Below are positions 1 to 54,261 of a DNA stretch of 64,000 nt, piece after piece (position 1 is the stretch's first letter; each line of letters begins with the position of its first letter). Source of the DNA: a virus (Duplodnaviria; Caudoviricetes); IMG/VR virus record IMGVR_UViG_3300044695_006401. The stretch is one strand, 5' to 3'. The notes under the pieces were generated by a model. The model did not search any database and was not told where the DNA came from. It saw nothing but the letters and a program-made list of their open reading frames with translations. The position numbers were made by a program, and so were the translations under genes.

Positions 1-90
1 TATGGATTTCATTTCTTTTGAATCTACCGTACCATAGTAACATTTAGCATCATCAAAAACATTTAATTTCGATGTTTTTCCTTTTTTCAT
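1..90 (-). CDS. hypothetical protein, 5' part (runs off window start): MKKGKTSKLNVFDDAKCYYGTVDSKEMKSI...
   Basis: ATG at 90, open for 30 codons to position 1; AT-rich upstream region divergent from bS21. Confidence 0.55.
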   Translation of the reverse strand, partial: MKKGKTSKLNVFDDAKCYYGTVDSKEMKSI

Positions 91-170
91 TCTTCATAAC
101 TTAAAGTTTATTTGTTTTATACAATTATAATAAAAATAAACATCGTTGTCAAAAATCGAAAAATCTTGTA

Positions 171-177
171 TATTTAT
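171..177 (+). promoter_or_regulatory. TATTTAT motif upstream of bS21 (recurrent putative phage late promoter element)
   Basis: Same 7-mer sits upstream of about 20 starts in the window on the coding strand (see findings). Confidence 0.55.
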
Positions 178-181
178 ATCA

Positions 182-189
182 AAAGGAGG
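182..189 (+). promoter_or_regulatory. strong Shine-Dalgarno AAAGGAGG of bS21 gene
   Basis: AAAGGAGG at 182-189, 8 nt before ATG 198; complementary to 16S 3' CCUCCUUU. Confidence 0.85.
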
Positions 190-197
190 AAAAAAAT

Positions 198-380
198 ATG
201 ATTATAGTACCAGTAAAAAACCCTAACTCTATTGAGCAAGCACTTAAACAATATAAATTTAAAGTGTATAAAACAAAACAAATCGAAAGGTTGAGGGAAT
301 TACAGGAGTTTACGAAACCTTCAGTTTCAAAAAGAGACCAGAAGAAAAAGGCAGCTTATTTACAAAAAAAGAATAACTAG
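198..380 (+). CDS. rpsU: phage-encoded 30S ribosomal protein bS21, Bacteroidia type
   Basis: 60 aa basic protein: V.VK...SIEQALK.YK.K...LR..QEF.KPSV.KR...KKAAY; Tyr at residue 54. Confidence 0.93.
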   Translation: MIIVPVKNPNSIEQALKQYKFKVYKTKQIERLRELQEFTKPSVSKRDQKKKAAYLQKKNN

Positions 381-617
381 TTATTTGTTGTCACCTTTTT
401 TGTGTGTAAAGAAATCGACTGAAGTCAAACCTAAACACCCAAAGGCCAACAGACCTACAGCATCCACCAAAGTTGATGATGGTTCGTATTTTCCACAACT
501 AAACATAGATATAAATAATCCTACAATTAGGGATAATCCACAAAGAAGACCAATAAACCTTTTAGAGGAAATCCCCCCATTTGCCCCTTCCATCATTGAT
601 TTAAAAAACCTAATCAT
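381..617 (-). CDS. small two-TM membrane protein (holin-like possible)
   Basis: 78 aa, two hydrophobic stretches, basic C-terminus; couples to upstream gene by ATGA overlap. Confidence 0.6.
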   Translation of the reverse strand: MIRFFKSMMEGANGGISSKRFIGLLCGLSLIVGLFISMFSCGKYEPSSTLVDAVGLLAFGCLGLTSVDFFTHKKGDNK

Positions 618-1345
618 AATCCTTGACTTAAACCCCTCAACTTATAAAGATTGAATCTATCATAAGGTGATTCATTAATTTTTTTGATTGTATTTTCTAT
701 TGTTGATTTTAAATCAGATTCTGTCGATTCGTTCAAAGTAGATTTCAAATTAGAAATAACATTTTCTTTAAGTTGGTCCATTTCGGTTTTGATTTCTTCA
801 TCCGACATAGATGACAACTCCTCTATAACTTTTCTTTCTGATTCTGAAATATTTTTTAATTCTAATTTAATATTTTCTTCAGCAACCTTAACCATTGTTG
901 AAATTGGTAAGTTAACGCTTTCTATTATATCTTCTTTCTTTTCTTCTAAAATAATATTAGACTTAATTTTTCTTTTAGATTCTAAAACCGTGGATAGGTC
1001 TTTGATTGATTTCTTATATATCGTATTATCAATATCCTTGTATTCATTAGTATGTTCCAATACAATAGAATCAATCCAATTACTTACCTTTGTAATATGT
1101 TTTGAATTACCTTCAACTAAAATTTGAGAATACTCAACAGTTTCATTTATGTAATCTTCGGCGATAGATTCATTAATACCCTTGTTAGAAGATAAATCAT
1201 CGTAGATATAATATAACTCAGCAATGTCTTTGTTTTCTAAAACCATTGATTTAAATTGTTTCAAAAAAGATTTAAATTCAGGTTTTCCGTATAAACCGAT
1301 AGATGCTTTTTCTATTTTTGTTTTTATAGTGCCAAAAGTGTTCAT
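614..1345 (-). CDS. hypothetical protein (helical, acidic; possible head-associated)
   Basis: 243 aa ORF downstream of portal; TATTTAT 12 nt upstream. Confidence 0.75.
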   Translation of the reverse strand: MNTFGTIKTKIEKASIGLYGKPEFKSFLKQFKSMVLENKDIAELYYIYDDLSSNKGINESIAEDYINETVEYSQILVEGNSKHITKVSNWIDSIVLEHTNEYKDIDNTIYKKSIKDLSTVLESKRKIKSNIILEEKKEDIIESVNLPISTMVKVAEENIKLELKNISESERKVIEELSSMSDEEIKTEMDQLKENVISNLKSTLNESTESDLKSTIENTIKKINESPYDRFNLYKLRGLSQGL

Positions 1346-1364
1346 AGTTTTTATTTAATAAATA

Positions 1365-3185
1365 TTACTTATTCAATAAAGATTTAACTCTTTCATCTAT
1401 TTCAATCAACGAGTTTCTTCCTTTAGATAATTCTATAACATCTGCAGAATTAAATAATGACAAATCTTCCAATATTAAATCTAATCCATCTTTATTAAAA
1501 CTTTCAGGTGTTACCCCTCCAGGTTCAGGTGATGGTGAGCCTTCAGGTGGTGGTGGGGCTCCTCCGCCTAAATCTCCACCTCCCATATCCATATCACCTC
1601 CTTCAGGTGCCGCACCTCCTTCAGGTGTTGCTTCACCATCTTTTTTACCGTAAAGTTGGTCTATAGTATCAAAAAGTCCGGTTTTAGGTATACTCTCAGC
1701 AGTTTTTACAAGTTCTGCAGCCACTGCCCTTTCTACCCTTTGTTGTTGTATATCTAATCTTATTTCTTCATCTGAGAACCCTAAGATATGTTTTTTAGCC
1801 CAAGACGCTGAAACAGGGGCTACTGTGTCTGCGATAGGTGTAACTGCATCTTTATACAGAAGTATTTTTTCCTTCCATAGTTCGATTGAAAGTAATTCAG
1901 ATTGTTTAGATGGATTGTGTAAACCTAATGTGAAGTTTGTTAATTCGTCTTCAAAACCTAATAAAAAAAGATGAATAATTGCAATTTTATTTAATTCTGC
2001 AATCATAGACTTTTGAATTCTATTGATAGTTCTCGCAAAACGAATATCTAATAATGATAAATTTTTACCATCACCTACCGCCTCTTCGAATCCTAAATAA
2101 GCCTTAGGTATTCTAAGAGCTGTAACTAATTTCTTTTGAATATACTCAATGTCTGCGATTTCAGCTAAGTTCGTACCACCTGGTAATGTTTCAATAGGGT
2201 TGGTTGCTGCCGGATCACGAACAGGAATGAAATAATCTTGGTCTACCGCCATTTGATTATACCTCATATCGACATTACCTGTTGAGTGATCAACAATTTG
2301 ATCTCTTTTAAATTTATTAGCAACTCTTTGTACATATGGGTCAACATCTTTGTCGTCCATGTTACCGACAAATACTTTAAATACTCTTCTTTCAGGTGCT
2401 CTAGATACACGATAGATTAACATCGCATCTTCAGAAAGTAATAATTGTTTCCAAATTCTACGAGCCTTTTCGAGCATCGATGTACCATACGGTAGTTTTC
2501 TATCGTCACCTAAAATTCTAAAGTGTGCTACTTCCCAAGTATTGAACTCCATGTTTTTTTCCTTCCAAGTAAACTTCAAAGCGTCGTTTTCCATTTCTTG
2601 TGAGTACTTATCAGGTTGAAACCTCATCCCTTTTTCTAATCTTTCGATTTGAATGTTTGGTAGTTGTTGACATCCAACAATACCATTTTCAGGATCTAAC
2701 TTAAGATATACAAAGTTGTCACCAAACTTACATGTGTTTCTTGTCCACATTGGTAAGTTGGTGTTAATATCCAATTTATTAACAAAAAGATCGATTAATA
2801 CTGATTTTATTCTTTTTGATTCAGAATAAACTTTTAATATAAGTCCATCTTGATCTGGTGTTGTGGATTCTTCAGAATAAATGTCTAATGCCGCAGAAAT
2901 TTCAGGTGTATATTCCATAGATTCATAATCATAGTATGACGCCATTCTTGTTGGTTCATAATATACCGCTTGTTGGTATAAATTATTTTCTACTTTTTGC
3001 CATTGTTGGCCGATATACATTGTCTGCTGAGATTGTAATTTTTCTTTTTCAAACTCAGATTTATCTGTTGTCTTTAATAGCTCCTTTTTATCAAATTTGA
3101 ATACGGGAGATTGTTGGTCAAGGGTTGCATTAGGACCAAAAGTCCTACTCAATCTTTGCCACACCGTTAATTTTTGTTCTGACAT
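1365..3185 (-). CDS. portal protein (T4 gp20-like) with Gly/Pro/acidic C-terminal tail
   Basis: Motifs YR..RAPERRVFKV.VGNM, DYFIPVR, IETLPGG.NL, DIEY.QKKL..AL.IP. Confidence 0.92.
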   Translation of the reverse strand: MSEQKLTVWQRLSRTFGPNATLDQQSPVFKFDKKELLKTTDKSEFEKEKLQSQQTMYIGQQWQKVENNLYQQAVYYEPTRMASYYDYESMEYTPEISAALDIYSEESTTPDQDGLILKVYSESKRIKSVLIDLFVNKLDINTNLPMWTRNTCKFGDNFVYLKLDPENGIVGCQQLPNIQIERLEKGMRFQPDKYSQEMENDALKFTWKEKNMEFNTWEVAHFRILGDDRKLPYGTSMLEKARRIWKQLLLSEDAMLIYRVSRAPERRVFKVFVGNMDDKDVDPYVQRVANKFKRDQIVDHSTGNVDMRYNQMAVDQDYFIPVRDPAATNPIETLPGGTNLAEIADIEYIQKKLVTALRIPKAYLGFEEAVGDGKNLSLLDIRFARTINRIQKSMIAELNKIAIIHLFLLGFEDELTNFTLGLHNPSKQSELLSIELWKEKILLYKDAVTPIADTVAPVSASWAKKHILGFSDEEIRLDIQQQRVERAVAAELVKTAESIPKTGLFDTIDQLYGKKDGEATPEGGAAPEGGDMDMGGGDLGGGAPPPPEGSPSPEPGGVTPESFNKDGLDLILEDLSLFNSADVIELSKGRNSLIEIDERVKSLLNK

Positions 3186-3222
3186 AATTTTTTTCTTAAA
3201 AAATAATATGGTTAGTTATAAA

Positions 3223-4998
3223 CTAAACCCTTTTACCACTGAATAACCATAAATACTTTTCATAATCACTTTTAGTGACCGTGTTTCTCTGATATCCTGT
3301 TTGATCTCTCTGTGATACTGGTAAACTTGGATTAAAACTTGTATACTCTTTATGATAAGTATTACTTTCTACTGACCAAGAATCTAACATTGCCTTTGTT
3401 TGTTCTGTTACTTTTTCTAATTGGGCAAAAGATGTTTCAGCAACATAAATTGCTATTGCAAATGACATTATCAAGTCATCATGTTGTCCTTTTTGGTGAT
3501 CAGGTCTACCGTTTACATAAACGAATGTATTCAATTCATTAAATAACCTTTGTGATCTGACAACAAAATCATACCTTAAAGCTTCCTCAAATGATTGAAT
3601 AATTAGAACTCGTTTTGCGTTAAAATTAATACCAGGAATTTTATCATTAGCCTTTGGGTCCCACTTCCATTTATCTGCAGGGTTTACCCCATCAACATAT
3701 AAATTTTTATATCCAAGTTCTTGTAATTTTCTTGATGTTGACACTCCCATCCCTCCTGTTATATCAGTCACGATAAGGGAACCATACATAGTTCCCCACT
3801 TGAAAGCAATTTCTGCTAAAACATCGGGTGGGATTTTTCCAATATATTCTAAAACTTGTTCTCTTGAGTCAAAATCAATGATTGATATAGTACTAAAATC
3901 TTCACTATCTCCTCTTGATACATCGACACCCATAATATATTTATGACCAACAATAGGTTCTTTCCATTGCCAAAGTGCACCTCCCATAAATTTATTAACA
4001 GGTTCTTGGATGTGGTTTTCTTTTATTTTTTTCATCGTTTCAGGTGGGATAACATTGTCACCCGAACCTAAAAAATTACATTCTAATTCTTGAGAAATTT
4101 TTCTTTTGTCAAACTTTAACTTTTTGGCCATAGCCTCAAACCAAGAACTATACGGTTTGTAACCTTTATTAATTTTTTCCTTTATTTCTTCAAAGTCTCT
4201 ATTAATTACTTTGACTTCAGTATAGTCTAGTATGATTTCAGAATCATTATAATCCGCCCTATTCAACATATAGTGAACAATATCATCACACTTAATTAAT
4301 TTCAGATCCTTAGAATATCTAGGATCTCGAAACCAATACATTTCTGTTATTTTAAAGTCATTCATTCCTTTTATCGCCTGACTGTAAATTGAATAATATA
4401 TTGGATCAAATCCATTTGGTGTTGATATTACTATAACTTTACCTCCTGTAGATAGGGATGCCATACACGCTGACCAGAAATCTTCGTCCGCATTAATATA
4501 TGCTGCCTCATCAAAGATTAAGATCGTAGGTGTATACCCACGCAAAGCATCCTTAGATGTTGCAACTGCCTTTACTTCACATCCGTTAGTTAATTTAAAA
4601 TGTCTTTGTGAATTTTTTTCGTTAGAGAATGTTACACCTAACCAATTTGGCCACTGTTCAACAAAAGCTCTCACTTTATTTGCCATCTCTACAGCGGTGT
4701 CCATTTTATTTGCAATAATCAATATTTTTTCTGGTTTTGATTTTTTAGCAAATACTAACCTTTTAGATGCCCATGCGGATGTAACGGTTGAAACACCGGC
4801 TTGTCGGTATTTAAGTGCGATATTTTCTTCACACTCGTCATAATCTTTAACAAGTGTAACCTGATCATTAAAAAGTTCTAATGGAACATATTTGGACTGT
4901 GTGTTGTCGTAAGTTTGTAAATATGTTTTTAAGGCGTAAGGTGTATCATTTACACACTTAGCATACTCTAATAATATTTGTTCTTTCGATAACGACAT
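3223..4998 (-). CDS. terL: terminase large subunit (T4 gp17-like)
   Basis: Walker A-like KYRQAGVST, Walker B LIFDEAA, coupling motif ISTPNG, nuclease GVDVSRG..D and HDDL. Confidence 0.93.
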   Translation of the reverse strand: MSLSKEQILLEYAKCVNDTPYALKTYLQTYDNTQSKYVPLELFNDQVTLVKDYDECEENIALKYRQAGVSTVTSAWASKRLVFAKKSKPEKILIIANKMDTAVEMANKVRAFVEQWPNWLGVTFSNEKNSQRHFKLTNGCEVKAVATSKDALRGYTPTILIFDEAAYINADEDFWSACMASLSTGGKVIVISTPNGFDPIYYSIYSQAIKGMNDFKITEMYWFRDPRYSKDLKLIKCDDIVHYMLNRADYNDSEIILDYTEVKVINRDFEEIKEKINKGYKPYSSWFEAMAKKLKFDKRKISQELECNFLGSGDNVIPPETMKKIKENHIQEPVNKFMGGALWQWKEPIVGHKYIMGVDVSRGDSEDFSTISIIDFDSREQVLEYIGKIPPDVLAEIAFKWGTMYGSLIVTDITGGMGVSTSRKLQELGYKNLYVDGVNPADKWKWDPKANDKIPGINFNAKRVLIIQSFEEALRYDFVVRSQRLFNELNTFVYVNGRPDHQKGQHDDLIMSFAIAIYVAETSFAQLEKVTEQTKAMLDSWSVESNTYHKEYTSFNPSLPVSQRDQTGYQRNTVTKSDYEKYLWLFSGKRV

Positions 4999-5004
4999 TC
5001 ATTT

Positions 5005-5523
5005 TTAATTTCTTCTACGAATTACATCGAGAAGTTCACCTTTTGTGGTATGTGGAGGTAAATGATTTTGTAATATTCTAAGAATACCCTCTTCAAGATT
5101 TTTAACTTCTTCGTCCGTTTCTTTTTTCTTGGGTAACCCTTTTCTTTTAGTCGATGCAAAGTCTTCTAATTCTTTGTAAGTCATGTCTTTAGCCATTTTC
5201 TTTACTTCTTTAGAAACTTTAGATTTTGCAGTATCTCCTTTTTTCACTGAAAGTGCCAATCCCATTATTTTTTGTTGTTGTTGGGAAACTGACTTCTCCT
5301 TTACTTCAGTCTCCTCTTCTTTAACCTCAACATCAACACCTGAGTCTGTCATTTTTTTAAGATCGACAGTCCCCAACTTATCTGAAGAAACTGTTACCTT
5401 ACCTTTTTGCTCATTTATTCTTTTAAAAAGAACATTTAACTGGTTTTCGTTTAGTTTTTCTAATGTATTCATAGAAAAACCTTCATGTAAAAGTTTAACT
5501 AATTTAGGATTCATGTGTTTCAT
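5005..5523 (-). CDS. hypothetical protein containing DUF3008-like segment
   Basis: SVSQQQQKIMGLALSVKKG...MT.KELEDFASTKRKGLP resembles DUF3008; also RINEQ motif. Confidence 0.65.
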   Translation of the reverse strand: MKHMNPKLVKLLHEGFSMNTLEKLNENQLNVLFKRINEQKGKVTVSSDKLGTVDLKKMTDSGVDVEVKEEETEVKEKSVSQQQQKIMGLALSVKKGDTAKSKVSKEVKKMAKDMTYKELEDFASTKRKGLPKKKETDEEVKNLEEGILRILQNHLPPHTTKGELLDVIRRRN

Positions 5524-5923
5524 CTTTGACTAAATTTTTTTCCCATTTTAATACGACATCTCTTTCGTAAAGTTTGTTTTCTACAGATTCGTCTGTTTCA
5601 CCAAAGTGAAAAACTAATCTTTTATACTTGTTGAATGTAACTGAGTCAGAATCAGATTTTTCCCAAGCTAACCCAATAACACCATCTACTGCATCATATA
5701 CTCCAAAATAATCAGACTGTTGTATCAGTTCTAATTCTATTTCTGAGTTTCTTAAAACCCCAACCTTTTTTATAAATTCTATTTGAGGGGGGAGTGGTTT
5801 TCCACCTGATGGTGTTGCATCCCAATCTTCACCCCACACATCATTAATATCCGAAAATATAAATTCGTAAATGTTATCACCTTTGTAATTAGGTCCTAGC
5901 TCATTTACATAAATCAAATTCAT
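5504..5923 (-). CDS. hypothetical protein
   Basis: 139 aa ORF, overlapping neighbours in operon. Confidence 0.7.
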   Translation of the reverse strand: MNLIYVNELGPNYKGDNIYEFIFSDINDVWGEDWDATPSGGKPLPPQIEFIKKVGVLRNSEIELELIQQSDYFGVYDAVDGVIGLAWEKSDSDSVTFNKYKRLVFHFGETDESVENKLYERDVVLKWEKNLVKDETHES

Positions 5924-7212
5924 ATAATCGATCCTGTTGGTGTTACTTTAATTTGTTTACCTTCTTTAATAAAAACTAAGTTGGACTTATTGGTTTTACC
6001 AATGAATTTGGTTCCTTTATTTTCCTCTATCAATTCCAAACTAACTTTGTATTGAGTGTTGTTTTCACTTAATTTTCTCAAATCCCTCAATGTATCTATT
6101 TTATTAATTTTAGATTTTATAAAATCTTTTTTTGATTTTTTTTCTAAACCTTTTTTTTCATCTTCATTAATAATAAAATAGTTTGATAAAACACTTTCTA
6201 CAGATTCTTTGAAAGTGTATGTTTCTACAGGTTCAGACATTTCAGGTTCCATTCCCATCGGCTCTTCGCCGTCCATCGGTTCTGGCATTTCAGGTTCCAT
6301 TCCCATATCGAAGTCTTCTTCTCCTGACAAGTCAAACTCACCCTCACCTTCAGCACCATATTCATCAGATTCGTCGAATTTAGAAAGTATATCTTCTTTA
6401 TCGTCTTCATCTAAACTATCTAAATCCATTGCAGATATTATAGAATTAATTACATACTTAATATCTTGAGAATCTAGTCCTTGATCTTTATCAAAAGCTC
6501 TAATTTTTTGACTTAATTTACCTGTTAGTCTTTGAATTGATTTCAAACCTGCTGGTCCTTGTGGTTCTTCGTCACCATCGTCTTCTCCACCCATTTCAGG
6601 TTCCATACCCATTGGCTCTTCACCATCTACGGGTTCTTCTCCACCCATTTCCGGTTCCATACCCATTGGTTCTTCTCCACCCATTTCAGGTTCCATACCC
6701 ATTGGTTCTTCTCCACCCATTTCAGATCCCATAGGAGCATCCGCTGGTGGTTCAGGTGATGGGGAAGGCATTGGTGCCGGTTCCATTGCAGGTTCCGGTG
6801 CTGGCATTTCTTCAGATTTAGGTTTAGGAGTTCTTAAAACATATTTTTTTTTTGCCTCTTGTTCACCAATAAGAGGAATTTCAAATTCGTTTCCAGTTAC
6901 CCTGTTGACTTCGGCAGCGACAAGATTAAGTTTTTTCATCGCTTCAGAATATGATCTATAATATTTCCTTTGTTTCATAGGTTCGTTATAGTCCATTTCA
7001 GACTCGTTCAAACCTTTTTTGAGGATGTATCCTGTTTTTTCTTTAACAATACCATAAGTCATACCATCAGCCAAAGTAATAGTATAGTTAGTTGTGGAAA
7101 GTGGATTAGTTTCAGTTTTAGGTGCTTCGTTATAACGAGCAATCTCCATAATTCTTCTTAATTTTTCAACACCTTCTAATTTCTCACTACCAAGAGGTCT
7201 TAAATCTCCCAT
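5920..7212 (-). CDS. acidic Pro/Met/Glu-rich protein, possible prohead core/scaffold
   Basis: 430 aa; long EPMGMEPEMGGE low-complexity linkers between helical blocks; located in head gene block. Confidence 0.7.
   Translation of the reverse strand: MGDLRPLGSEKLEGVEKLRRIMEIARYNEAPKTETNPLSTTNYTITLADGMTYGIVKEKTGYILKKGLNESEMDYNEPMKQRKYYRSYSEAMKKLNLVAAEVNRVTGNEFEIPLIGEQEAKKKYVLRTPKPKSEEMPAPEPAMEPAPMPSPSPEPPADAPMGSEMGGEEPMGMEPEMGGEEPMGMEPEMGGEEPVDGEEPMGMEPEMGGEDDGDEEPQGPAGLKSIQRLTGKLSQKIRAFDKDQGLDSQDIKYVINSIISAMDLDSLDEDDKEDILSKFDESDEYGAEGEGEFDLSGEEDFDMGMEPEMPEPMDGEEPMGMEPEMSEPVETYTFKESVESVLSNYFIINEDEKKGLEKKSKKDFIKSKINKIDTLRDLRKLSENNTQYKVSLELIEENKGTKFIGKTNKSNLVFIKEGKQIKVTPTGSII
6582..6727 (-). repeat. 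36-nt coding tandem repeat (GEEPMGMEPEMG), about 3.5 copies
   Basis: cttctccacccatttcaggttccatacccattgg near-identical at 6582, 6636, 6672, partial 6708. Confidence 0.85.
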
Positions 7213-8246: not shown

Positions 8247-8267
8247 ACATATAAATATGATAAAAAA

Positions 8268-8883: not shown

Positions 8884-10920
8884 ATGATAGAATCCGTAGA
8901 CGAAAACGAAAAACCAAAAAACAAACCTAAAGATAGTTCCTCAAAAACCCCCGTATTAGATAATTTCTCAAGAGATCTAATTAAGGCGGCAGAAGAAGGG
9001 AAGTTGGACCCTGTGATAGGGAGAGAAAACGAGATCAATAGGATTGCTCAAATTTTATCAAGGAGAAAGAAAAACAATCCAATTATTTTAGGGGAACCGG
9101 GTTGTGGTAAAACTGCAATTGTTGAGGGACTTGCAAAAAAGATTTTTGAAGGTGATTGTCCTCAAAATTTAGCAAACAAAAGAATAGTATCGTTAGATAT
9201 GACATCAGTTGTGGCAGGGACAAAATATAGAGGTCAGTTTGAAGAGAGGATGAAGGTTATAATGGAAGAATTATATGGAAATCCCGATATTATAATTTTT
9301 ATTGATGAAATACATACTATGATTGGTGCTGGTAATTCATCAGGTTCTATGGATGCGTCAAACATATTTAAACCCGCACTTTCAAGAGGGGAACTTCAAT
9401 GTATTGGGGCGACAACTTTAGACGAATACAGAAAAAATATTGAGAAGGATGGGGCATTAGAAAGAAGATTCCAAAAAGTTATTGTTGACGCATCAACAAA
9501 AGAAGAAACATTACTAATTCTTCAACAATCCAAAGAAAGTTATGAAAATTACCACAAAGTAATTTATAGTGATGATATTATGAAACTTTGTGTGGAGTTA
9601 GCCGATAGATATATTACTGATCGTGAATTTCCAGATAAGGCATTTGATATTATTGATGAGGTTGGGGCAAGATCTCAAGTGGAAGTAAAACTTCCTGAAA
9701 TTATTGAGGACTTGAAAAAAGAAGCTTTGAAAATCAAAGAAGAAAAGTTAGATGTCATCAACAAACAAAAGTATGAGGAGGCGGCTAATTTACGAGACAA
9801 AGAAAGAAAAGTTCTTGCCGAATTAGAAAATGAGAAACAAAAATTCGAAAAGAATCGTGACATGTTTAAAAGAGAAGTGACTGAAGATGTCGTTTATGAT
9901 GTAGTTTCTTTAATGACAAAAATTCCTGTGAATAAAATATCTACAGATGAAACACAACAACTTATTTCTTTAAAAGAAAATTTGAACACAAAAGTTATTG
10001 GTCAGGATGATGCTGTAAGTAAAATAGCAAGGGCAATTCAGAGAAATAAAGTTGGTTTAAACGATCCGAAAAAACCTATTTTCAGTGGTCTGTTAATTGG
10101 TAATTCGGGAGTCGGGAAAACAGAACTCGCAAAACAATTGGCAAAACATATGTTTAACAGTGAAGACGCTTTAATCCGTTTAGACATGAGTGAGTTTTCA
10201 GATAAAATTTCAACATCCAAATTGACGGGAACATCACCAGGTTATGTGGGGTTTGAAGAGGGCTCACCATTTTTGAATAAAATCAAAAACAAGCCATACT
10301 CTGTAATTCTATTAGATGAAATAGAAAAGGCACATTCCGATATATTCAATGTTTTTTTACAGATGTTGGATGAGGGTATGTTAACAGACGGTCATGGGAG
10401 AAAAATAAATTTTAAAAATTGTATTATTCTAATGACTTCTAATGTGGGAACTAAGGTTGTACAAGATTTTGGGACGGGTGTCGGTTTTTCAACAACGGCA
10501 AAAACTGAAAGAAAAGACGATGAGATCAAAACACTTTTGGAAAAAGAGCTATTCAAAAAATTCCCGCCTGAGTTTATCAATAGATTTGATGATATAGTTT
10601 ATTTCAAAGACCTTAATAAAGAGGATTTGTTAAAAATTGTTGATTTAGAACTTAATAAATTCTACGAAAGAATTTCTAAGTTAGAGTTTTCTGTAGATGT
10701 CGATGAGACACTAAAAAAACATCTAATAGAAGTCGGAATGGATACTCGTTTTGGGGCTAGAATACTTAAAAGAACCGTACAGAAATGGATTGATGATGCA
10801 ATCACTGAAAAAATCCTTACAGATAACCCAGAAAAAGGATCAAAGTTTGTTCTTACTTATAACGAGAAGGAAAAGAAAACTGATGTTAAAATAAAAAAAC
10901 CAATTAAAAGAAAAAAATAA
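8884..10920 (+). CDS. clpC: ClpC/ClpA-type AAA+ unfoldase lacking the N-terminal Clp-repeat domain
   Basis: Two AAA modules ([14 protein letters not shown]; [17 protein letters not shown]), UVR-like M-domain ([11 protein letters not shown]), ClpP-docking VGF loop; sequence begins just before LDNFSRDL. Confidence 0.9.
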
Positions 10921-10921: not shown

Positions 10922-10952
10922 TTTGCAAATGTTAAAAACTTTTGTACATTTG
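10922..10952 (+). promoter_or_regulatory. Bacteroidota sigma70-type promoter (TTTG-N19-TACATTTG)
   Basis: Perfect consensus and spacing; it overlaps the ORF-track start 10942, so true start is ATG 10966. Confidence 0.8.
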
Positions 10953-10965
10953 TAAAAAAACAGCA

Positions 10966-12018
10966 ATGAACATAGAAAAATTTAAAGAGCTCCTTTCAGT
11001 CCCAAGCAAGACATATCAAGAAGAAGATATGGTAGAGTTTATTTGTGACGAGTTGGGGGATATGGAAGGGGTTACTTTCTATCGTGATGTAATGATGAAC
11101 ATCTACGCGACAAAAGGTGTGTTAGAGGAAGGTGAATTTTACCCTATGTTTATTGCTCACACAGATACAGTACACAGTAAGATTGAAAAAATAGTAGTTA
11201 AAGAAGAAAAACTTGCTCGACCTTACACTTTTGGTAAATCCTTTGACAACACACCAGTTGATGTATTAAAGGCTTATGACACTAACGGTAACCCAACAGG
11301 TATTGGTGGTGATGACAAGTGTGGTATTTTTATTTGTTTAGAGTTACTAAAACAATTAGACAAAGTAAAAATTGGTTTTTTTGTTTCAGAAGAAACAGGA
11401 TGTCACGGTTCATCAAAATGTGATGAAAACTTTTTACAGAATGTTGGTTATATCACTCAATATGACGCACCTGGTAATCACTTAATTACCGAGATTTGCT
11501 CGGGAGTTCGTTTGTTTGAAAGGGAGAGTGAGTTCTTTGAAAAAACATTAGAAGTTATTACGGAATCTTTTGGTAATGAAATGTTAGTTCAATCTCACCC
11601 TTACACCGACATTTCACAACTAAAAAAGAAAATCAATGTTTCTTGCATTAACATGTCTTGTGGTTATTACAATATGCACTCAGTTCAAGAGTTTGTATCC
11701 TTAGACGATGTAAAAAATGCGATTGAAGCAGGAAAGAAGATGGTTGCAGTATTGGGACTTAAAAAATACACATACGAATATGCTCCTATCAAATATACTC
11801 CTCAATTAATAATGAATTCACTTGTGGAAGATTTAGATGAAGAAGTTTTTGATTACCCTGAAGAAACTTTTCATCGTTTAGGGAGTATAGACGCATATGA
11901 AGAAAAAGATGGTATCACATTAAGTGACGCTTATGACGATGGATTTTTATTTATCCCCGATGAGGATTTAGTAAGTCTTTATGAAATTATTAAAGAAAGA
12001 TTGATTAAAAAGTATTAA
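10966..12018 (+). CDS. zinc metallopeptidase, M28/M20/M42 clan
   Basis: AHTDTVH, GGDDK, SEETG, QYD, YYNMH..E metal-ligand pattern; start moved to MNIEKF. Confidence 0.8.
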   Translation: MNIEKFKELLSVPSKTYQEEDMVEFICDELGDMEGVTFYRDVMMNIYATKGVLEEGEFYPMFIAHTDTVHSKIEKIVVKEEKLARPYTFGKSFDNTPVDVLKAYDTNGNPTGIGGDDKCGIFICLELLKQLDKVKIGFFVSEETGCHGSSKCDENFLQNVGYITQYDAPGNHLITEICSGVRLFERESEFFEKTLEVITESFGNEMLVQSHPYTDISQLKKKINVSCINMSCGYYNMHSVQEFVSLDDVKNAIEAGKKMVAVLGLKKYTYEYAPIKYTPQLIMNSLVEDLDEEVFDYPEETFHRLGSIDAYEEKDGITLSDAYDDGFLFIPDEDLVSLYEIIKERLIKKY

Positions 12019-15830: not shown

Positions 15831-16322
15831 ATGCAAACTTTTCTTCCATATACTGATTTCAGAAAGTCTTTAGAGTCTTTAGACAACAAGCGCTTAGGAA
15901 AACAAAGAGTAGAAGCATATCAAATAATTTCAGCAATAACAGGTCGCACTAGAAAAGATGGTAAACCATATAAGGGTTGGTTAAATCACCCATGTTCTGT
16001 TATGTGGAAAGATTATGTAAACGCGTTAAAACAATACTATAATGATAGTATTGATGTATGGGTTTCTCGTGGATTTAAAAACACAATGGAACACGAACAA
16101 ATTGAAGGTGAGTTTGTTTTACCTCATTGGTTGGGTATGGAAGAATTTCACACTTCACATAGATCAAATCTATTAAGAAAAGATTCTGAGTATTATTCTA
16201 AACATGGGTGGACTGAGGACCCTAACGATCCATATGTATGGATGGATTCTAATGGTGAATGGTACAAACAAATGGTAGGTTCAAAAGAACGAGTATATTT
16301 TAGTGTTGGTGTTCTTGTATAG
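15831..16322 (+). CDS. MSMEG_6728 family / pyrimidine-dimer DNA glycosylase-like protein
   Basis: MQTFLPY.DF..S...LD.KRLGKQRVEA.QI, HP...MW, P.WLG....H.SHRSNLLRKD. Confidence 0.85.
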   Translation: MQTFLPYTDFRKSLESLDNKRLGKQRVEAYQIISAITGRTRKDGKPYKGWLNHPCSVMWKDYVNALKQYYNDSIDVWVSRGFKNTMEHEQIEGEFVLPHWLGMEEFHTSHRSNLLRKDSEYYSKHGWTEDPNDPYVWMDSNGEWYKQMVGSKERVYFSVGVLV

Positions 16323-16434
16323 TATATTCTATAATATTACCATAATCCTCTATCCATTGTAAACATTCCTCCTGAGTCTTATCCGAGAGGACAATGTTTT
16401 CTGTTTCTATTTCTATTACATCGTAAGTAATCAT
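16300..16434 (-). CDS. 44-aa small protein missed by ORF track (MITYDVIEIETENIVLSDKTQEECLQWIEDYGNIIEYTIQEHQH)
   Basis: ATG 2 nt after upstream TAG; 45 codons; tail overlaps convergent gene by 23 nt. Confidence 0.55.
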   Translation of the reverse strand: MITYDVIEIETENIVLSDKTQEECLQWIEDYGNIIEYTIQEHQH

Positions 16435-16436: not shown

Positions 16437-17318
16437 CTAACTAAATGTTAAAGTTATTGTTTGAGATGGTGCCCCTACCGTACTTTGATTAGTCCCTCCC
16501 CAGTTAGCATTATTAATCATAGGTCTAAGAGCATATGTACTACCCGCGTTACAACTAGCAATGTTTGAGAACTCAACGGCAACCCCACCAATTTTAGGTG
16601 TACCACATCCCGTACCAACTCTCCAAGACACACTATTAATAGTTACTGAAGTTATTGTGGCGGTTCTTAACCCATTCGCTAAGGTCTGTACTAAGGTTGG
16701 ATCTGAAACCGTTATTGAATTTCCATTTGTACTTGACCATACAAATTGGGTGTATGTAGTACCAGTTAATTGACTTCTAAATGTATTCCAAGCAGTTTCT
16801 ATTGCGGATGATGGTGCAGTCGCCCCTGTGAATGCTTGTGAGAATGTAACACCACTTTCAGGTATAGGATTAGTTGTTGGGGTTGGAGTTGGTGTTGCAG
16901 TAGGAGTAGCTGTTGGTGGTATTGGTGTTGCCGTTGGTGTAGGTGTTGCTGTAGGGGCAACAAAATTCCAAGAACTCCAATACCCATTACCACTTAACCA
17001 TAGATATGCTTCGTTTCCTGTGTTAAATGTTTGTCCTGAAGAAATAAGTTCCGACAACTCAATAAAGTCATTTTCTAAAAAACCATCAGTTCTAAAAAAA
17101 CCAACTGAAGCAGTTTGACCCGATACATTAGTAGGTTGGCTGTTATCAGGTACTGATTGGGCAACAACATAACCAAGATCTTCATCAGGTCCATTCCACC
17201 AAACTGGTGGACCTGAAAACCCCGAAAATGGGGTACCAACGCATAGATCACCAATTTGTGTTGTTCCTGAAATAGAAACTCTTGATGGGTTATATGCAAA
17301 TGGTCTTAGTGTTGGCAT
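16437..17318 (-). CDS. virion fibre-like protein with Pro/Thr linker
   Basis: Start at MPTLRP via TAATG overlap with upstream stop; [11 protein letters not shown] linker; Ser/Thr/Gly-rich beta C-domain. Confidence 0.7.
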   Translation of the reverse strand: MPTLRPFAYNPSRVSISGTTQIGDLCVGTPFSGFSGPPVWWNGPDEDLGYVVAQSVPDNSQPTNVSGQTASVGFFRTDGFLENDFIELSELISSGQTFNTGNEAYLWLSGNGYWSSWNFVAPTATPTPTATPIPPTATPTATPTPTPTTNPIPESGVTFSQAFTGATAPSSAIETAWNTFRSQLTGTTYTQFVWSSTNGNSITVSDPTLVQTLANGLRTATITSVTINSVSWRVGTGCGTPKIGGVAVEFSNIASCNAGSTYALRPMINNANWGGTNQSTVGAPSQTITLTFS

Positions 17319-17584
17319 TAGATAGTTGGCATCGGTGATGTCCATTCAGGAGTTGATAGAATCACCAAAATTTCATCATATGTGTATGGACCTTCTTTTG
17401 TTGTTAAGTTGTTAACACAAGATGGTATCGTACCGTCCCATTTAACAAATGTTTTTGTTTCATTGACTGATTTTCTCACAGTTTCTGCAGATGTTTCTAA
17501 TACGGTTGAGAAGTCGATTTGACCTAACTCACTCACATTAAAAATCATAAATCTTCTGTTGTCGTATTCTTCTAAAGTTGCCAT
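17318..17584 (-). CDS. small hypothetical protein (fibre-associated)
   Basis: 88 aa between LamG and PT-linker genes. Confidence 0.7.
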   Translation of the reverse strand: MATLEEYDNRRFMIFNVSELGQIDFSTVLETSAETVRKSVNETKTFVKWDGTIPSCVNNLTTKEGPYTYDEILVILSTPEWTSPMPTI

Positions 17585-27753: not shown

Positions 27754-30700
27754 TCATACTAATTCAATCCAATCTTGTGAAGGATTAAAGTAAATTATAT
27801 CAGCTGAAATCGCATAACCAACAACTCTTACTATGTCACTAGTGCCCGATGGTTGAGTGGATGTTATATCTCCATCGGTAGTTGATAAATACAACACTTG
27901 ACCTGGAGTCCAGTTCCATGCCGATCTATATGCATAACCTCGTAACATCATACCCGAGTTGAATTGAACACCTATCGCCATTCCAAGTAGACCCTGAGCG
28001 GTTGCAGAACTATCAGCATCCGCAAGTGCCCATGCTGAACCACTTGTCCAATAGTATACATTATATTTAGTTGAGGTTCCGCTACCACCAAATGTTACAA
28101 GTTCGCCATAATAATCATCGATAGTCATGAGTGTGGTCGGATCAGTCGCTAATCTCCATTCACCCTCTAATAAGGTTGTTGAACTAGTATTAGCTCTAAA
28201 CAAGTTAGCACCTGTATTAATGGTAAAGGCGGCACTTGAGTTCGCTGAATTCGATGTACCGTTTGCAACTAAAATATTATTAGCAGTAGTTGGAGAAATT
28301 GATGTAAATCCTGCACCTTGGGCCCCTTGTGCCCCCTGTGGACCAGGACCTCCCGTTGCACCTTGAGCCCCTTGGGCTCCAGTTGCCCCTAATCCCGCAG
28401 GTCCAGTTGGTCCTTGTGCTCCTTGAGGTCCAGGTCCGCCTGTCGCTCCTTGTGCTCCTTGAGGTCCAGGACCGCCTGTAGCTCCTTGTGCTCCTTGAGG
28501 TCCAGGACCACCTGTTGCTCCTTGAGCTCCGGTCGCTCCTTGGGCACCTTGAGGTCCAGGTCCGCCTGTTGCTCCTTGTGCACCTTGAGGTCCAGGTCCG
28601 CCTGTTGCTCCTTGGGCACCTTGAGGTCCAGGTCCGCCTGTTGCTCCTTGAGCTCCGGTCGCTCCTTGTGCACCTTGAGGTCCAGGTCCGCCTGTTGCTC
28701 CTTGTGCTCCGGTTGCTCCTTGTGCTCCGTTAACTCCGCTAGTTCCATTTGTTCCTGAAGTACCAGCAGCACCTTGTGCTCCGGTTGCTCCTTGTGCTCC
28801 AGTTGCTCCTTGTGCTCCGGTTGCTCCTTGTGCTCCGTTAACGCCTGAAGTACCTCTCGTACCGCTAGTTCCATTTGTTCCTGAAGTACCAGCGGCCCCT
28901 TGTGCTCCGGTTGCTCCTTGTGCTCCAGTTGCTCCTTGTGCTCCGTTAACTCCGCTAGTTCCATTTGTTCCTGAAGTACCAGCGGCCCCTTGTGCTCCGG
29001 TTGCTCCTTGTGCTCCAGTTGCTCCTTGTGCTCCGTTAACTCCGCTAGTTCCATTTGTTCCTGAAGTGCCAGCGGCTCCTTGTGCTCCAGTTGCACCTTG
29101 TGCTCCAGTCGCTCCTTGTGCTCCGTTAACTCCGCTAGTTCCATTTGTTCCTGAAGTGCCAGCAGCTCCTTGTGCTCCAGTTGCACCTTGTGCTCCGGTT
29201 GCTCCTTGTGCTCCGGTTGCTCCTTGTGCTCCGTTAACTCCGCTAGTTCCATTTGTTCCTGAAGTACCAGCAGCACCTTGTGCTCCGGTTGCTCCTTGTG
29301 CTCCAGTTGCTCCTTGTGCTCCGGTTGCTCCTTGTGCTCCGTTAACGCCTGAAGTACCTCTCGTACCGCTAGTTCCATTTGTTCCTGAAGTACCAGCGGC
29401 CCCTTGTGCTCCGGTTGCTCCTTGTGCTCCAGTTGCTCCTTGTGCTCCGTTAACTCCGCTAGTTCCATTTGTTCCTGAAGTACCAGCGGCCCCTTGTGCT
29501 CCGGTTGCTCCTTGTGCTCCAGTTGCTCCTTGTGCTCCGTTAACTCCGCTAGTTCCATTTGTTCCTGAAGTGCCAGCGGCTCCTTGTGCTCCAGTTGCAC
29601 CTTGTGCTCCAGTCGCTCCTTGTGCTCCGTTAACTCCGCTAGTTCCATTTGTTCCTGAAGTACCAGCGGCTCCTTGTGCTCCAGTTGCTCCTTGTGCTCC
29701 GTTAACACCTGATGTTCCTCTCGTACCGCTAGTACCGTTTGTTCCTGAAGTCCCATTCGTTCCATTTGTACCTGACGTTCCGTTAGTCCCGTTTGTTCCA
29801 TTTGTCCCGTTAGTACCTGACGTACCATTTGTTCCGCTAGTACCGTTTGTTCCTGACGTTCCATTTGTACCGTTTGTACCTGAAGTACCATTGGTTCCAC
29901 TTGTGCCGTTAGTTCCGTTAGTACCTGAAGTTCCATTTGTACCATTTGTTCCCGAAGTTCCGTTAGTTCCTGATGTGCCATTTGTTCCTGATGTTCCATT
30001 TGTACCACTTGTGCCGTTTGTTCCTGATGTTCCATTAGTACCATTGGTACCTGATGTTCCGTTTGTACCATTCGTCCCATTAGTTCCTGACGTTCCGTTT
30101 GTGCCATTCGTTCCTGATGTACCTCTTGTACCTGACGTACCGTTTGTTCCATTCGTTCCGCTAGTACCATTTGTTCCTGAAGTTCCGTTGGTTCCATTAG
30201 TCCCCGATGTTCCATTGGTTCCGTTGGTACCTGATGTGCCATTAGTTCCATTTGTTCCTGATGTTCCGTTTGTACCATTAGTACCTGAAGTGCCGGCAGC
30301 ACCTTGAGCTCCCTGAGGTCCAGTTGGTCCTTGTGCTCCCTGAGGTCCAGTCGCGCCTTGTGCTCCAACCGCACCTTGAGCTCCCTGAGGTCCAGTTGCG
30401 CCTTGTGCTCCGTTTACTCCTGATGTACCATTAGTACCTGAAGTACCCGCAGCCCCTTGAGCTCCTTGTGGTCCAGTCGCCCCTTGAGCGCCTTGTGGTC
30501 CAGTGGCACCTTGTGCCCCATTTACTCCTGATGTTCCGTTTGTCCCCGATGTACCATTTGTACCATTAAGACCACTTACTCCCGAAGTACCATTAGTTCC
30601 TGATGTACCATTAGTTCCGTTCGTACCTGAAGTCCCATTAGTACCATTAGTTCCCGAAGTTCCGTTTGTTCCATTAGTTCCTGATGTTCCTCTTGTCCCT

Positions 30701-33700
30701 GAAGTTCCATTGGTTCCTGAAGTGCCGTTTGTTCCACTAGTACCATTTGTACCATTAGTTCCTGATGTTCCGTTTGTTCCACTAGTACCATTTGTTCCAC
30801 TAGTACCATTTGTACCTGAAGTACCATTTGTCCCATTCGTTCCGCTAGTTCCGTTAGTTCCATTAGTACCGCTAGTTCCGTTCGTTCCTGATGTACCGTT
30901 TGTACCATTAGTTCCGTTAGTTCCTGAAGTTCCATTTGTACCGTTTGTTCCACTTGTACCATTTGTCCCCGAAGTCCCGTTGGTTCCATTAGTTCCTGAT
31001 GTTCCTCGTGTCCCTGATGTTCCATTCGTTCCGCTAGTACCGTTAGTTCCCGATGTTCCATTAGTACCGTTGGTGCCACTTGAACCATTCGTTCCCGATG
31101 TTCCATTAGTACCGCTCGTACCGTTAGTACCATTCGTTCCACTAGTACCGTTAGTTCCCGAAGTACCGTTAGTACCTGAAGTCCCATTAGTTCCATTTGT
31201 TCCTGAAGTACCATTAGTACCGTTTGTACCTGAAGTACCATTAGTTCCACTTGACCCGTTTGTCCCTGAAGTACCATTTGTCCCACTAGTTCCATTTGTT
31301 CCTGATGTACCATTGGTTCCATTTGTTCCCGATGTACCGTTTGTACCTGATGTTCCATTAGTTCCTGAAGTACCATTCGTGCCTGAGGTTCCATTTGTTC
31401 CGTTAGTTCCGCTTGTACCATTAGTCCCGTTTGTGCCTGATGTTCCATTAGTTCCGCTTGTACCATTAGTCCCGTTAGTACCATTTGTACCGGATGTTCC
31501 TCTTGTGCCAGAAGTCCCGTTCGTTCCGCTAGTACCGTTTGTACCATTCGTTCCTGAAGTTCCATTTGTGCCTGATGTGCCGTTAGTTCCATTGGTTCCC
31601 GAAGTTCCATTAGTACCTGAAGTACCATTTGTCCCGTTTGTACCGCTAGTACCATTAGTTCCCGATGTTCCATTAGTACCATTCGTACCTGAGGTTCCAT
31701 TTACACCACTTGTTCCATTTGTTCCGTTTGTACCAGAAGTCCCATTAGTTCCACTTGTACCGTTGGTTCCACTTGAACCATTTGTTCCTGAAGTCCCGTT
31801 GGTACCATTTGTTCCTGAAGTCCCGTTGGTACCATTTGTTCCGTTAGTTCCTGATGTTCCATTCGTTCCGCTAGTACCGTTAGTTCCATTAGTACCTGAT
31901 GTTCCGTTAGTACCACTCGTACCATTTGTACCGTTAGTTCCTGAAGTTCCATTAGTACCGCTTGTTCCGTTAGTTCCTGAAGTACCATTCGTGCCTGAGG
32001 TTCCATTTGTTCCGTTTGTACCACTAGTACCGTTCGTACCATTCGTTCCGTTAGTACCTGAAGTTCCGTTTGTACCGGATGTTCCATTAGTACCGCTAGT
32101 ACCATTAGTTCCATTTGTTCCGTTCGTACCCGATGTTCCGTTCGTACCATTCGTTCCTGATGTTCCTCTTGTACCACTAGTGCCATTTGTTCCTGAAGTA
32201 CCGTTAGTTCCGTTTGTACCTGATGTGCCGTTTGTTCCTGAAGTTCCATTGGTCCCGTTAGTTCCTGAAGTACCATTTGTACCGGATGTTCCATTAGTAC
32301 CGTTTGTTCCATTGGTTCCTGAAGTTCCATTTGTTCCACTAGTTCCATTGGTACCGTTAGTTCCTGAAGTACCATTTGTTCCATTAGTCCCTGATGTTCC
32401 GTTAGTTCCAGATGTTCCATTTGTCCCGCTAGTTCCGTTTGTACCGCTAGTTCCGTTTGTTCCATTAGTCCCTGATGTACCATTTGTACCCGAAGTTCCA
32501 TTAGTTCCTGATGTACCATTTGTGCCAGATGTTCCGTTTGTTCCATTAGTTCCTGATGTACCGTTTGTTCCTGAAGTACCATTCGTTCCGTTTGTACCGC
32601 TAGTACCATTCGTTCCTGAAGTACCATTCGTTCCACTTGTACCATTTGTACCATTCGTTCCGCTAGTCCCGTTTGTTCCACTAGTACCATTCGTACCGTT
32701 AGTTCCAGATGTTCCGTTAGTTCCAGATGTTCCGTTGGTTCCGTTCGTTCCTGAAGTTCCATTCGTACCATTTGTCCCTGATGTTCCTCTTGTTCCTGAA
32801 GTTCCATTCGTACCTGAAGTTCCGTTAGTTCCGCTAGTTCCATTCGTACCATTTGTCCCGTTGGTTCCTGATGTTCCATTAGTACCATTCGTACCGCTAG
32901 TTCCATTTGTTCCTGATGTTCCATTAGTACCATTCGTACCGCTAGTCCCATTTGTTCCTGATGTACCATTGGTTCCATTTGTTCCTGACGATCCATTAGT
33001 TCCGTTTGTTCCTGACGATCCATTCGTACCATTTGTGCCAGATGTTCCGTTAGTTCCACTAGTTCCATTCGTACCGTTTGTTCCGCTTGTTCCATTGGTC
33101 CCGTTTGTTCCCGAAGTACCATTTGTGCCTGAAGTACCATTTGTACCATTCGTTCCGCTAGTTCCATTCGTACCGCTAGTTCCATTCGTACCGCTAGTTC
33201 CGTTTGTTCCATTAGTCCCTGATGTACCGTTGGTTCCGCTAGTTCCATTTGTACCATTTGTCCCACTAGTGCCATTAGTTCCATTGGTACCGTTTGTTCC
33301 TGATGTTCCTCTTGTTCCTGAAGTTCCGTTTGTTCCACTAGTACCATTCGTACCATTTGTACCGCTAGTTCCATTTGTACCGCTAGTTCCATTTGTTCCT
33401 GATGTCCCGTTTGTACCGTTAGTTCCTGAAGTACCATTCGTTCCGCTAGTTCCATTTGTACCTGATGTACCATTTGTTCCTGATGTTCCGTTCGTACCGT
33501 TAGTGCCTGAAGTACCATTCGTTCCGCTAGTACCATTCGTACCATTCGTGCCTGATGTACCATTCGTGCCGTTCGTTCCAGAAGTTCCGTTTGTTCCATT
33601 CGTTCCGCTAGTTCCGTTTGTACCATTAGTTCCCGATGTTCCGTTTGTTCCGCTAGACCCGTTTGTTCCATTTGTACCTGAAGTCCCATTCGTTCCGCTA

Positions 33701-36700: not shown

Positions 36701-36837
36701 ACCGTAAATGTACCTGTGGTACAATCTACAAGATAATTACTTCGATTAATTGTGTATGTCGTGGTAACCGCACTATACGGAAATAATACCCCACCTAAAG
36801 ATTTGACCCCATTACGGGCTACGAATTCATTTGACAT
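27754..36837 (-). CDS. giant collagen-like fibre protein A (3027 aa)
   Basis: About 105-aa N-terminal beta domain, about 2740 residues of Gly-X-Y, C-terminal domain resembling capsid cement/decoration fold. Confidence 0.88.
28309..36522 (-). repeat. Gly-X-Y repeat region (GTN/GTS dominant; GAQ/GAT/GPQ blocks toward C-terminus)
   Basis: Gly every third residue, essentially unbroken by eye apart from a GL interruption near the end. Confidence 0.95.
28694..29660 (-). repeat. 504-bp-period near-exact tandem duplication inside fibre A
   Basis: Marker ctccgttaac at 28725/28833/28941/29031/29121 recurs at +504 (29229/29337/29445/29535/29625). Confidence 0.8.
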
Positions 36838-53815: not shown

Positions 53816-54261
53816 GATGCGTATTTTCCTGTTGGTCCGTAACCTCTTCCTGAAGTCCATTTATAACCCGTACCTTGGTAAGTCGGACCTTTAGTTCTCC
53901 CACTATCCCAAACAGTGTTCCCGACAGGGTTTCCCTTAGATCTATTGACTCCACTTTCCCACTTACTTACAGTACCTCCCCCTGAAGATGCGGTATCAGT
54001 AGTGGTATCTGTGGTAGTATCTGTTGTAGTTGCAGTTTCTTCACCCTCTTCTTTGATTTCACCTTCACCCATCCCATCAGAATCATAACTATCCATTTCT
54101 TTGTCCATTTCTGGATTTACACCATATTGTGATGGTCCTGTTTGTCTTGGGTCTTGGTCGTCCGCATAGTCACCATACGGATCTTTTGTAAACTCCGTTG
54201 ATCCTTCTAAGATATTCATCAAATTTTTGATGCGTGATATGCTCTCTTGTAAATTTTTCAT
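53812..54261 (-). CDS. hypothetical protein with LQESISRIKNLM leader and WxSG repeats
   Basis: KWESG/VWDSG/KWTSG in C-terminus; TTTD repeats. Confidence 0.75.
   Translation of the reverse strand: MKNLQESISRIKNLMNILEGSTEFTKDPYGDYADDQDPRQTGPSQYGVNPEMDKEMDSYDSDGMGEGEIKEEGEETATTTDTTTDTTTDTASSGGGTVSKWESGVNRSKGNPVGNTVWDSGRTKGPTYQGTGYKWTSGRGYGPTGKYAS

Follow-up and report, generated by a model that had tools for sequence, protein, structure and literature searches.

A Shine-Dalgarno sequence on the bS21 gene of a freshwater phage and its possible link to the rpsU circuit of Bacteroidota

The gene for a viral ribosomal protein bS21, encoded in a 64,000-nucleotide stretch of phage DNA (IMG/VR record IMGVR_UViG_3300044695_006401; hereafter the window), is preceded by the only positioned strong Shine-Dalgarno (SD) sequence among the 49 open reading frames (ORFs) called there. 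As judged from sequence comparisons, the association of an SD with bS21 is recurrent in phages, being found in two unrelated groups. The observation is real and more than chance, and reading it as a response to the host's ribosomes is plausible and better supported by the recurrence; it concerns a minority of the bS21-encoding phages. The broad proposal developed below is that, among phages whose Bacteroidota hosts are SD-blind, an SD has been placed on the viral bS21 gene on two or more separate occasions. It would recruit ribosomes that lack bS21, so that a vacant site is detected and then filled by phage bS21, in direct competition with rpsU autoregulation of the host. We hold this proposal tentatively, with slightly less than even confidence.

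In Bacteroidia, ribosomes that carry bS21 hide the anti-SD, and Tyr54, a signature residue of Bacteroidia-type bS21, stacks on A1534 of the 16S rRNA (Jha 2021, PMC7797042). The Flavobacterium johnsoniae bS21 gene, rpsU, is translated preferentially by bS21-lacking ribosomes, which results in autoregulation (McNutt 2023, PMC9976891). This circuit, cited correctly in the sequence-only reading that preceded our analysis, offers one of the clearest bacterial examples of ribosome specialisation. Those who described it speculated on a link to phage bS21, for which sequence evidence was previously absent. SD-led bS21 genes in two unrelated phage groups whose genes are otherwise SD-less constitute a sequence link to the host circuit and, if the proposal is true, would represent a virus exploiting ribosome heterogeneity.

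The bS21 gene and its leader

The features of the bS21 locus are as follows.

169..178, plus strand: promoter-like box TATATTTATA, with the core TATTTAT at 171-177 (conservation and motif positions)
181..197, plus strand: predicted leader of 16-17 nt, purine except for the last base (by analogy)
182..189, plus strand: Shine-Dalgarno sequence AAAGGAGG (sequence and pairing energy)
190..197, plus strand: A-rich spacer AAAAAAAT, 8 nt (sequence; ATG at 198)
198..380, plus strand: phage bS21 gene, 60 aa (matches in Pfam, NCBIfam, and PDB)
357..359, plus strand: Tyr54 codon, TAT (ungapped alignment to 7jil_z)

The ORF at 198-380 matches Pfam PF01165, Ribosomal_S21 (38.2 bits, cut-off 27, residues 4-54), and the NCBIfam equivalog TIGR00030 (31.3 bits, cut-off 28.95, residues 3-58). 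Its best solved relative is F. johnsoniae bS21 (PDB 7jil chain z, E 1.6e-11), and the alignment to this ribosome-bound protein is ungapped over residues 1-57, lending indirect support to the suggestion that the phage protein may be incorporated into the 30S subunit. In that alignment, KAAY54LQ of the phage sits on KAAY54IQ of F. johnsoniae, in agreement with the sequence-only reading, which had placed the Tyr of KAAY at position 54. Among 100 unique phage bS21 proteins, position 54 is occupied by Tyr in 85, by Phe in 7, and by His in 5. The conservation of this residue is already published and is not new: Tyr54 is kept in 54 of 61 phage bS21 proteins, with an aromatic residue in the remainder (Chen 2022, PMC9723584). 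The nearest relatives of the protein are IMG/VR phage proteins that are 86-88% identical to it, and the best bacterial matches are just 50-58% identical. In this phage bS21 family, the C-terminal part (residues 43-60 in the window protein, nt 324-377) is shortened relative to host bS21 of Bacteroidota; it is also more basic and is without the acidic tail found there. The domain that follows KPS has a net charge of +6 and a pI of 10.4, compared with charges of +2 to +5 in seven Bacteroidota bS21 proteins. Bacteroidia-type bS21 is described as distinctly less basic in this domain than its counterparts from other phyla (Jha 2021, PMC7797042). Such a shorter, more basic C-terminal part could alter the grip of phage bS21 on the 3' tail of the 16S rRNA.

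Upstream of the gene, AAAGGAGG lies exactly where the sequence-only reading had seen a strong SD, with a spacer of 8 nt before the ATG. It can form eight consecutive Watson-Crick pairs with CCUCCUUU of the 16S rRNA 3' tail (taken as nt 1535-1542), with a pairing energy of -11.8 kcal/mol against a 9-nt anti-SD and -12.2 kcal/mol against a 13-nt anti-SD. The spacer AAAAAAAT has A at -3 and -6, which are SD-independent start-site signals of Bacteroidia, where the role of upstream adenines in initiation has been described (McNutt 2023, PMC9976891; Arpin 2026, PMC13000457). When 181-270 is folded, the SD is unpaired in the centroid structure (z-score, 0.55), and the leader is predicted to be unstructured. 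The stretch is identical across DNA contigs of independent lake metagenome runs, which match positions 1-1767 with zero differences, so the SD is not an assembly error. All 17 nt of the leader are also identical between the window and its seven closest relatives, and the rest of the intergenic region differs by ~16%; this is weak evidence of constraint, since such a pattern would have roughly a 5% chance of arising. Among RNA contigs over 1-4000, one run labelled "RNA?" contains a relative ~93% identical across 1-351, and one metatranscriptome contains two 150-nt contigs within 613-885; neither marks the start, strand, or level of a bS21 transcript.

The box TATATTTATA resembles the Bacteroidota -7 element TAnnTTTG. 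Nearly every one of ~180 related phage bS21 loci has it ~20 nt 5' of the start codon, and the form TA(T/C)TATTTATA is present at this distance 5' of the ATG in all 80 of the closest IMG/VR loci. TATTTAT occurs 42 times in the window, and ~44 copies are expected from composition, so that it is not over-represented overall. Eighteen of the 42 lie in sense orientation no more than 40 nt upstream of a called start (0.76 expected); examples are at 8257(-), 8822(-), 46236(-), 57123(-), 51659(-), 54274(-), 62610(-), and 171(+). The positions of the motif suggest that it may function as a promoter element. With a promoter-like box of the TATTTAT type to itself, bS21 appears to form a unit of one gene. 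Several copies end 4-8 nt before an ATG; were the motif a -7/-10-type promoter box, the mRNAs from these sites would have little or no leader. By analogy with the host, transcription of bS21 is predicted to start at ~181-182, because the TTTG box of host rpsU ends 5 nt before its mapped 25-nt leader and the window motif ends 4-5 nt before several ATGs. The SD would thus lie at the extreme 5' end of the mRNA; the start is a prediction only, and one a few nucleotides further downstream would leave the SD clipped.

Distribution of the SD in the window and among related phages

To score SDs, 49 non-overlapping ORFs were called greedily with a 50-aa threshold, covering 96% of the window, and the best duplex of the 20 nt upstream of each start with the anti-SD was taken. 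The bS21 gene is the sole ORF with a positioned strong SD (-11.8 kcal/mol). The runners-up score -7.2, -6.9, and -6.3 kcal/mol, and the median is +0.2 kcal/mol, bearing out the two claims of the sequence-only reading that this SD is the only strong one in the window and that other starts have none. Since ~0.9% of random 20-nt windows score -10 or below, the chance of a lone such site landing on bS21 is ~1 in 49. The statement that it is the only SD applies to the 64-kb window, roughly a fifth of the likely genome (a near-complete relative, at 99%, is 292 kb). The remaining AGGAGG strings of the window are either internal to coding sequence or without a start codon at SD spacing. The one at 16373(-) sits within a small uncalled ORF (16300-16433, minus strand; ~44 codons and hence below the 50-aa threshold) that begins right after the stop of the gene at 16437-17345, and the one at 13397(-) has no start codon in SD range. 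No extended SD-like RNA was found in the intergenic regions of the window, and AAGGAGG is elsewhere confined to the portal gene.

The portal protein has a C-terminal low-complexity tail rich in Gly, Pro, and Glu (window ~1500-1700, minus strand, and also in related loci), the coding DNA of which is rich in GGAGG and AAGGAGG. This DNA gives rise to false calls of strong SDs when a truncated ORF starts at an internal Met codon. All apparent strong SDs at other genes of the related loci are of this kind, and no genuine strong SD was found at ~445 other unique gene starts of these loci. Together with the second family described below, the SD scan of loci from bS21 phages, a check of the kind that the sequence-only reading had named, gave no genuine strong SD at ~575 other unique phage gene starts.

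The SD itself is rare among bS21 genes of the window's own family (family 1). In similarity-based samples totalling 182 IMG/VR loci (the 80 closest and 102 from two further scans), it is present in 7, in addition to the window. Across the 80 closest loci (66-88% protein identity), only the seven closest (86-88%) carry it, and in the 73 others the leader is A-rich and pairs with the anti-SD at energies above -5 kcal/mol. None of the 102 further loci has a strong SD; AAAGGA takes its place in six of them. The tree of bS21 proteins sets those of phages apart from those of bacteria (99% SH-aLRT), and the SD-bearing members form one small, shallow group amid SD-less ones. On this phylogenetic evidence, the family 1 SD is a derived, clade-specific trait, neither a general design nor, in all probability, a relic of gene capture, and the SD is dispensable for phage bS21 function, because 175 of the 182 related genes are without it.

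Weaker purine runs occur in the same place in SD-less relatives: AAAGGA in loci L169, L200, L208, L209, L212, and L215, and AAAGGG in L078/L080, all ~8-15 nt before the bS21 ATG (-4.7 to -6.2 kcal/mol). In these several separate lineages they may be either intermediates or neutral wander in a purine-rich leader. We had considered a 3-nt GGA duplication that would convert AAAGGA leaders to AAAGGAGGA, but leader lengths gave no clear support and the idea was dropped.

A second family of SD-led phage bS21 genes came from a pattern scan of IMG/VR (GGAGG, 4-12 nt, ATG, and a degenerate bS21 N-terminus), which returned the seven known contigs and eight others. Because the eight loci came from a search that required an SD, overall frequencies are taken only from the similarity-based sets (7 of 182). 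The family 2 proteins have a DRALKILK motif, are 64-66 aa long, retain the Tyr, and have an acidic, host-like C-terminal tail. Their contigs (behind L235-L238, L285-L288, and L222) are 10-243 kb long with a GC content of 25-30%, and the neighbouring genes encode thymidylate synthase, glycosyltransferase, and homing endonuclease rather than head proteins. Similarity scans seeded from two of these loci defined a subclade A of seven unique proteins, or lineages. Five of the seven have a strong SD (AAAGGAGG, AAGGAGG, AGAGGAGGT, or GGAGGG), one has a weaker AAGGAG, and one has none; the SD-to-ATG spacers vary among the lineages, and the sister subclade is SD-less. At 132 unique gene starts in family 2 loci, the four strongest SDs all belong to bS21. 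In this family, the SD is preceded at a distance of ~20-25 nt by a TATATATA-type box. A tree that unites all SD-bearing bS21 genes in one clade is rejected by the approximately unbiased (AU) test (p=0.018). These large, low-GC phages resemble those of family 1 in encoding a bS21 with the equivalent Tyr and in having on it the only or strongest SD of otherwise SD-less loci, but they differ in bS21 family and genomic context, and the SD is the rule there and the exception in family 1.

This recurrence is the main argument against a chance SD. The neutral account would be that the 8-mer is a by-product, formed when a purine-rich leader underwent a small duplication or a few A-to-G substitutions, and is ignored by SD-blind ribosomes. 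Its origin by drift is conceivable because AAAGGA and AAAGGG occur in the same place in SD-less relatives, AAAGAGA being a further partial version among the several separate lineages, and with dozens of lineages sampled, it would be no great surprise for family 1 to contain one SD by chance. The absence of the SD from 175 of 182 related loci fits such an account, as do its pairing energy, weaker than that of any host rpsU SD measured, and the lack of effect of a weak AGGA in reporters (McNutt 2023, PMC9976891). However, neutrality does not readily explain why family 2 keeps an SD of varying sequence in six of seven lineages, why no other genuine strong SD is found at the ~575 gene starts, or why the leader is unchanged amid the intergenic divergence. 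Furthermore, SDs are selected against or under-represented in Flavobacteriales genomes, and a 7-nt SD suffices for a measurable response to bS21 loss (McNutt 2023, PMC9976891). We therefore consider the neutral account unlikely, though far from negligible.

Comparison with host rpsU and a proposed mechanism

Host rpsU genes from a sample of Bacteroidota genomes were scored by the same energy calculation. Flavobacteriales-type leaders, (A/G)AGAGGAGGTG, gave -17.5 to -22.1 kcal/mol, and the F. johnsoniae-type leader gave -19.8 kcal/mol, in agreement with the published value of "close to -20". The hallmark of the host rpsU SD is a pairing of 9-13 bp and an energy below -13 kcal/mol, with values of -14 to -21 kcal/mol (McNutt 2023, PMC9976891). 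With 8 bp and -12.2 kcal/mol, the phage SD falls narrowly outside this hallmark; in energy it ranks with published examples of weaker SDs, rpsR being one. The sequence-only reading had described the phage gene as copying the host rpsU design. It gave the gene, the SD, its spacing, and Tyr54 correctly, but the phage SD is a lighter version of the host rpsU SD and not a copy.

Like F. johnsoniae rpsU (McNutt 2023; Naeem 2026; Arpin 2026), the phage gene is a strong-SD gene amid SD-less genes (in the phage, those of the 64-kb window), with a short leader, an apparent promoter of its own, and a Tyr54 product of the type that helps to hide the anti-SD. In contrast to the host gene, it combines its shorter SD with a long A-rich spacer, and its SD is not conserved across family 1. 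The closest experimental analogue is a tuf'-gfp reporter, in which AGGAGGU was placed in the A-rich tuf leader, again pairing an SD-independent leader with an SD of 7-8 nt. Expression of this reporter rose 1.7- to >2-fold in bS21-deltaC, Y54A, and bS21-depleted cells (McNutt 2023, PMC9976891, Figure 3C). The reporter is artificial, with a 257-nt leader, and was assayed in F. johnsoniae, whereas a leader of 16-17 nt is predicted for the phage gene. Recent work on F. johnsoniae showed that one mismatch in the SD of rpsU is enough to abolish initiation by wild-type ribosomes but has hardly any effect on bS21-deltaC ribosomes, and that the ribosome accommodates either the SD-anti-SD helix or bS21 but not both (Naeem 2026, PMC13000453; Arpin 2026, PMC13000457).

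By analogy with these findings, our preferred reading is that the phage SD may make bS21 synthesis respond to ribosomes without bS21, a claim for which we judge the case to be evenly balanced. The leader would combine two signals, the A-rich spacer used by SD-blind Bacteroidia ribosomes and the 8-nt SD. Ribosomes carrying either host or phage bS21 would hide their anti-SD and read the mRNA at a basal level via the A-rich signals. Those free of bS21, whether new 30S subunits or ribosomes that have lost the protein, would expose the anti-SD and start more efficiently on the phage mRNA. Synthesis of phage bS21 would rise with the number of empty bS21 sites and fall once these are filled, a negative feedback via total bS21 occupancy. 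The phage mRNA would also compete with the SD-led host rpsU mRNA for the specialised ribosomes, so that empty sites would tend toward the phage protein. The sequence-only reading went further and proposed that anti-SD occlusion, which would suit late phage mRNAs, might in this way be restored. Each of these steps (preferential initiation, feedback, and competition with rpsU mRNA) we infer from the host system. Since the phage SD is shorter than that of the host, it is probably unable to pry the anti-SD from replete ribosomes, and the SD-dependent part of initiation would be limited to bS21-free ribosomes and modest, ~2-fold as in the tuf reporter. That a short SD might be readable only by bS21-free ribosomes follows from the tolerance of bS21-deltaC ribosomes for rpsU SD mismatches and from the exclusion of bS21 by the SD-anti-SD helix.

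The same leader could serve dose tuning or act as a decoy, with no feedback involved. The SD might soak up bS21-free ribosomes and so blunt the rebound of host rpsU, or its G residues, in place of favourable A-12 and A-13, might lower translation by replete ribosomes and thus set the dose. The proposal that host autoregulation is a counter-defence to phage bS21 exchange, a speculation in the work on the circuit, would suit the decoy, and a strong SD somewhat lowered reporter output in wild-type cells (McNutt 2023, PMC9976891). That the leader is very short and is predicted to begin almost directly with the SD also lends itself to these uses. No sequence feature separates them from the feedback reading, but since most relatives keep A-rich leaders, lowering the dose does not seem to be generally required, and we regard tuning or decoy action as improbable. 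That the SD arrived with the leader of a captured host rpsU and was kept passively is very improbable: leaders of the (A/G)AGAGGAGGTG type do occur in host rpsU of many Bacteroidota and the family 2 phage L285 has the host-like AGAGGAGGT, but the window clade lies amid SD-less phage genes well separated from bacterial bS21, many losses of the SD would be required, and in its promoter box and leader the window resembles SD-less phage relatives and not the host TTTG type. For family 2 taken separately, the SDs could be what remains of a host leader that was captured and is now decaying.

The SD-led phage leaders are natural constructs suited to existing F. johnsoniae strains (wild type, bS21-deltaC, Y54A, and depletion), with the SD-less sister phages as built-in controls, and the short phage SD is a natural gauge of the pairing needed by the bS21-free ribosome. 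If an effect proved absent, it would follow that SD-blindness of the host allows an SD of 8 bp to be retained neutrally. Phage bS21 genes led by an SD are mentioned neither in Chen 2022, Jha 2021, and McNutt 2023 nor in the two 2026 NAR papers (Naeem 2026; Arpin 2026), nor in those parts of a 2024 review that are picked out by phage phrases. The statement in the sequence-only reading that such coupling had not been described for phages accordingly stands for these papers on bS21 phages and on bS21/rpsU autoregulation.

The phage and its other genes

Further genes of the window that are relevant here are as follows.

1365-3185, minus strand: portal gene (PHROGs phrog_213, E 1.4e-65)
3223-4998, minus strand: large terminase gene, TerL (PHROGs phrog_2, E 8.9e-34)
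8884-10920, plus strand: ClpA/ClpC-like double AAA+ unfoldase (AAA, AAA_lid_9, AAA_2, and ClpB_D2-small domains; phrog_4871, 742 bits)
10942-12018, plus strand: peptidase, 3' of the unfoldase (phrog_4191, weak M42 match)

The head and packaging module (1365..4998, minus strand) is convergent with bS21, which lies on the opposite strand. The window is best explained as a portion of the genome of a large phage that lives in fresh water, infects Bacteroidota, and belongs with the bS21-encoding phages of Chen et al. 2022 (PMC9723584; see also Mizuno et al. 2019). As in those phages, a small bS21 gene lies on the strand opposite terminase and portal, an arrangement near head genes that the sequence-only reading had rightly called known, and residue 54 is aromatic and mostly Tyr. 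The settings are also alike, namely, lake water (the stretch is present in 18 lake-water metagenome runs, with at least 80% of sampled words) and large genomes of up to ~292 kb. The two accounts differ in that the initiation region of the phage gene is not discussed by Chen et al. and one clade here carries a strong SD; set against that system, the C-terminal part of the family 1 protein also stands out as more basic than that of host bS21. Megablast of window positions 1-6000 against GenBank phages gave no match, and tblastn of bS21 against the same set gave six distant matches only, in unannotated huge phages, so that no cultured relative emerged.

Bacteroidota are the probable host phylum, because the genes are SD-less throughout and two phage proteins have type IX secretion sorting domains. 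The proteins in question (51689-53860 and 60362-62596, both minus strand) combine type IX secretion C-terminal sorting domains (Por_Secre_tail and CHU_C) with PG_binding_1 and PKD-like domains. These domain matches suggest that the proteins may be routed through the type IX secretion system of the host. The only loci from a contig scan with the phage protein, five of Prevotella, stem from the peptide patterns of that scan and carry no information on the host.

A phage protease that might remove host bS21 has been suggested as a speculation (McNutt 2023, PMC9976891), and the Clp-like unfoldase and the adjacent peptidase are a candidate for such removal. The presence of the unfoldase shows no correlation with the SD. 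Five relatives, some with the SD and some without and among them the 292-kb near-complete record, have an unfoldase of 87-93% identity, which rules out the idea that it is specific to the SD clade. Elsewhere in the window, two giant ORFs lie next to each other on the minus strand, at 27754-36837 (3027 aa) and 36947-45043 (2698 aa).
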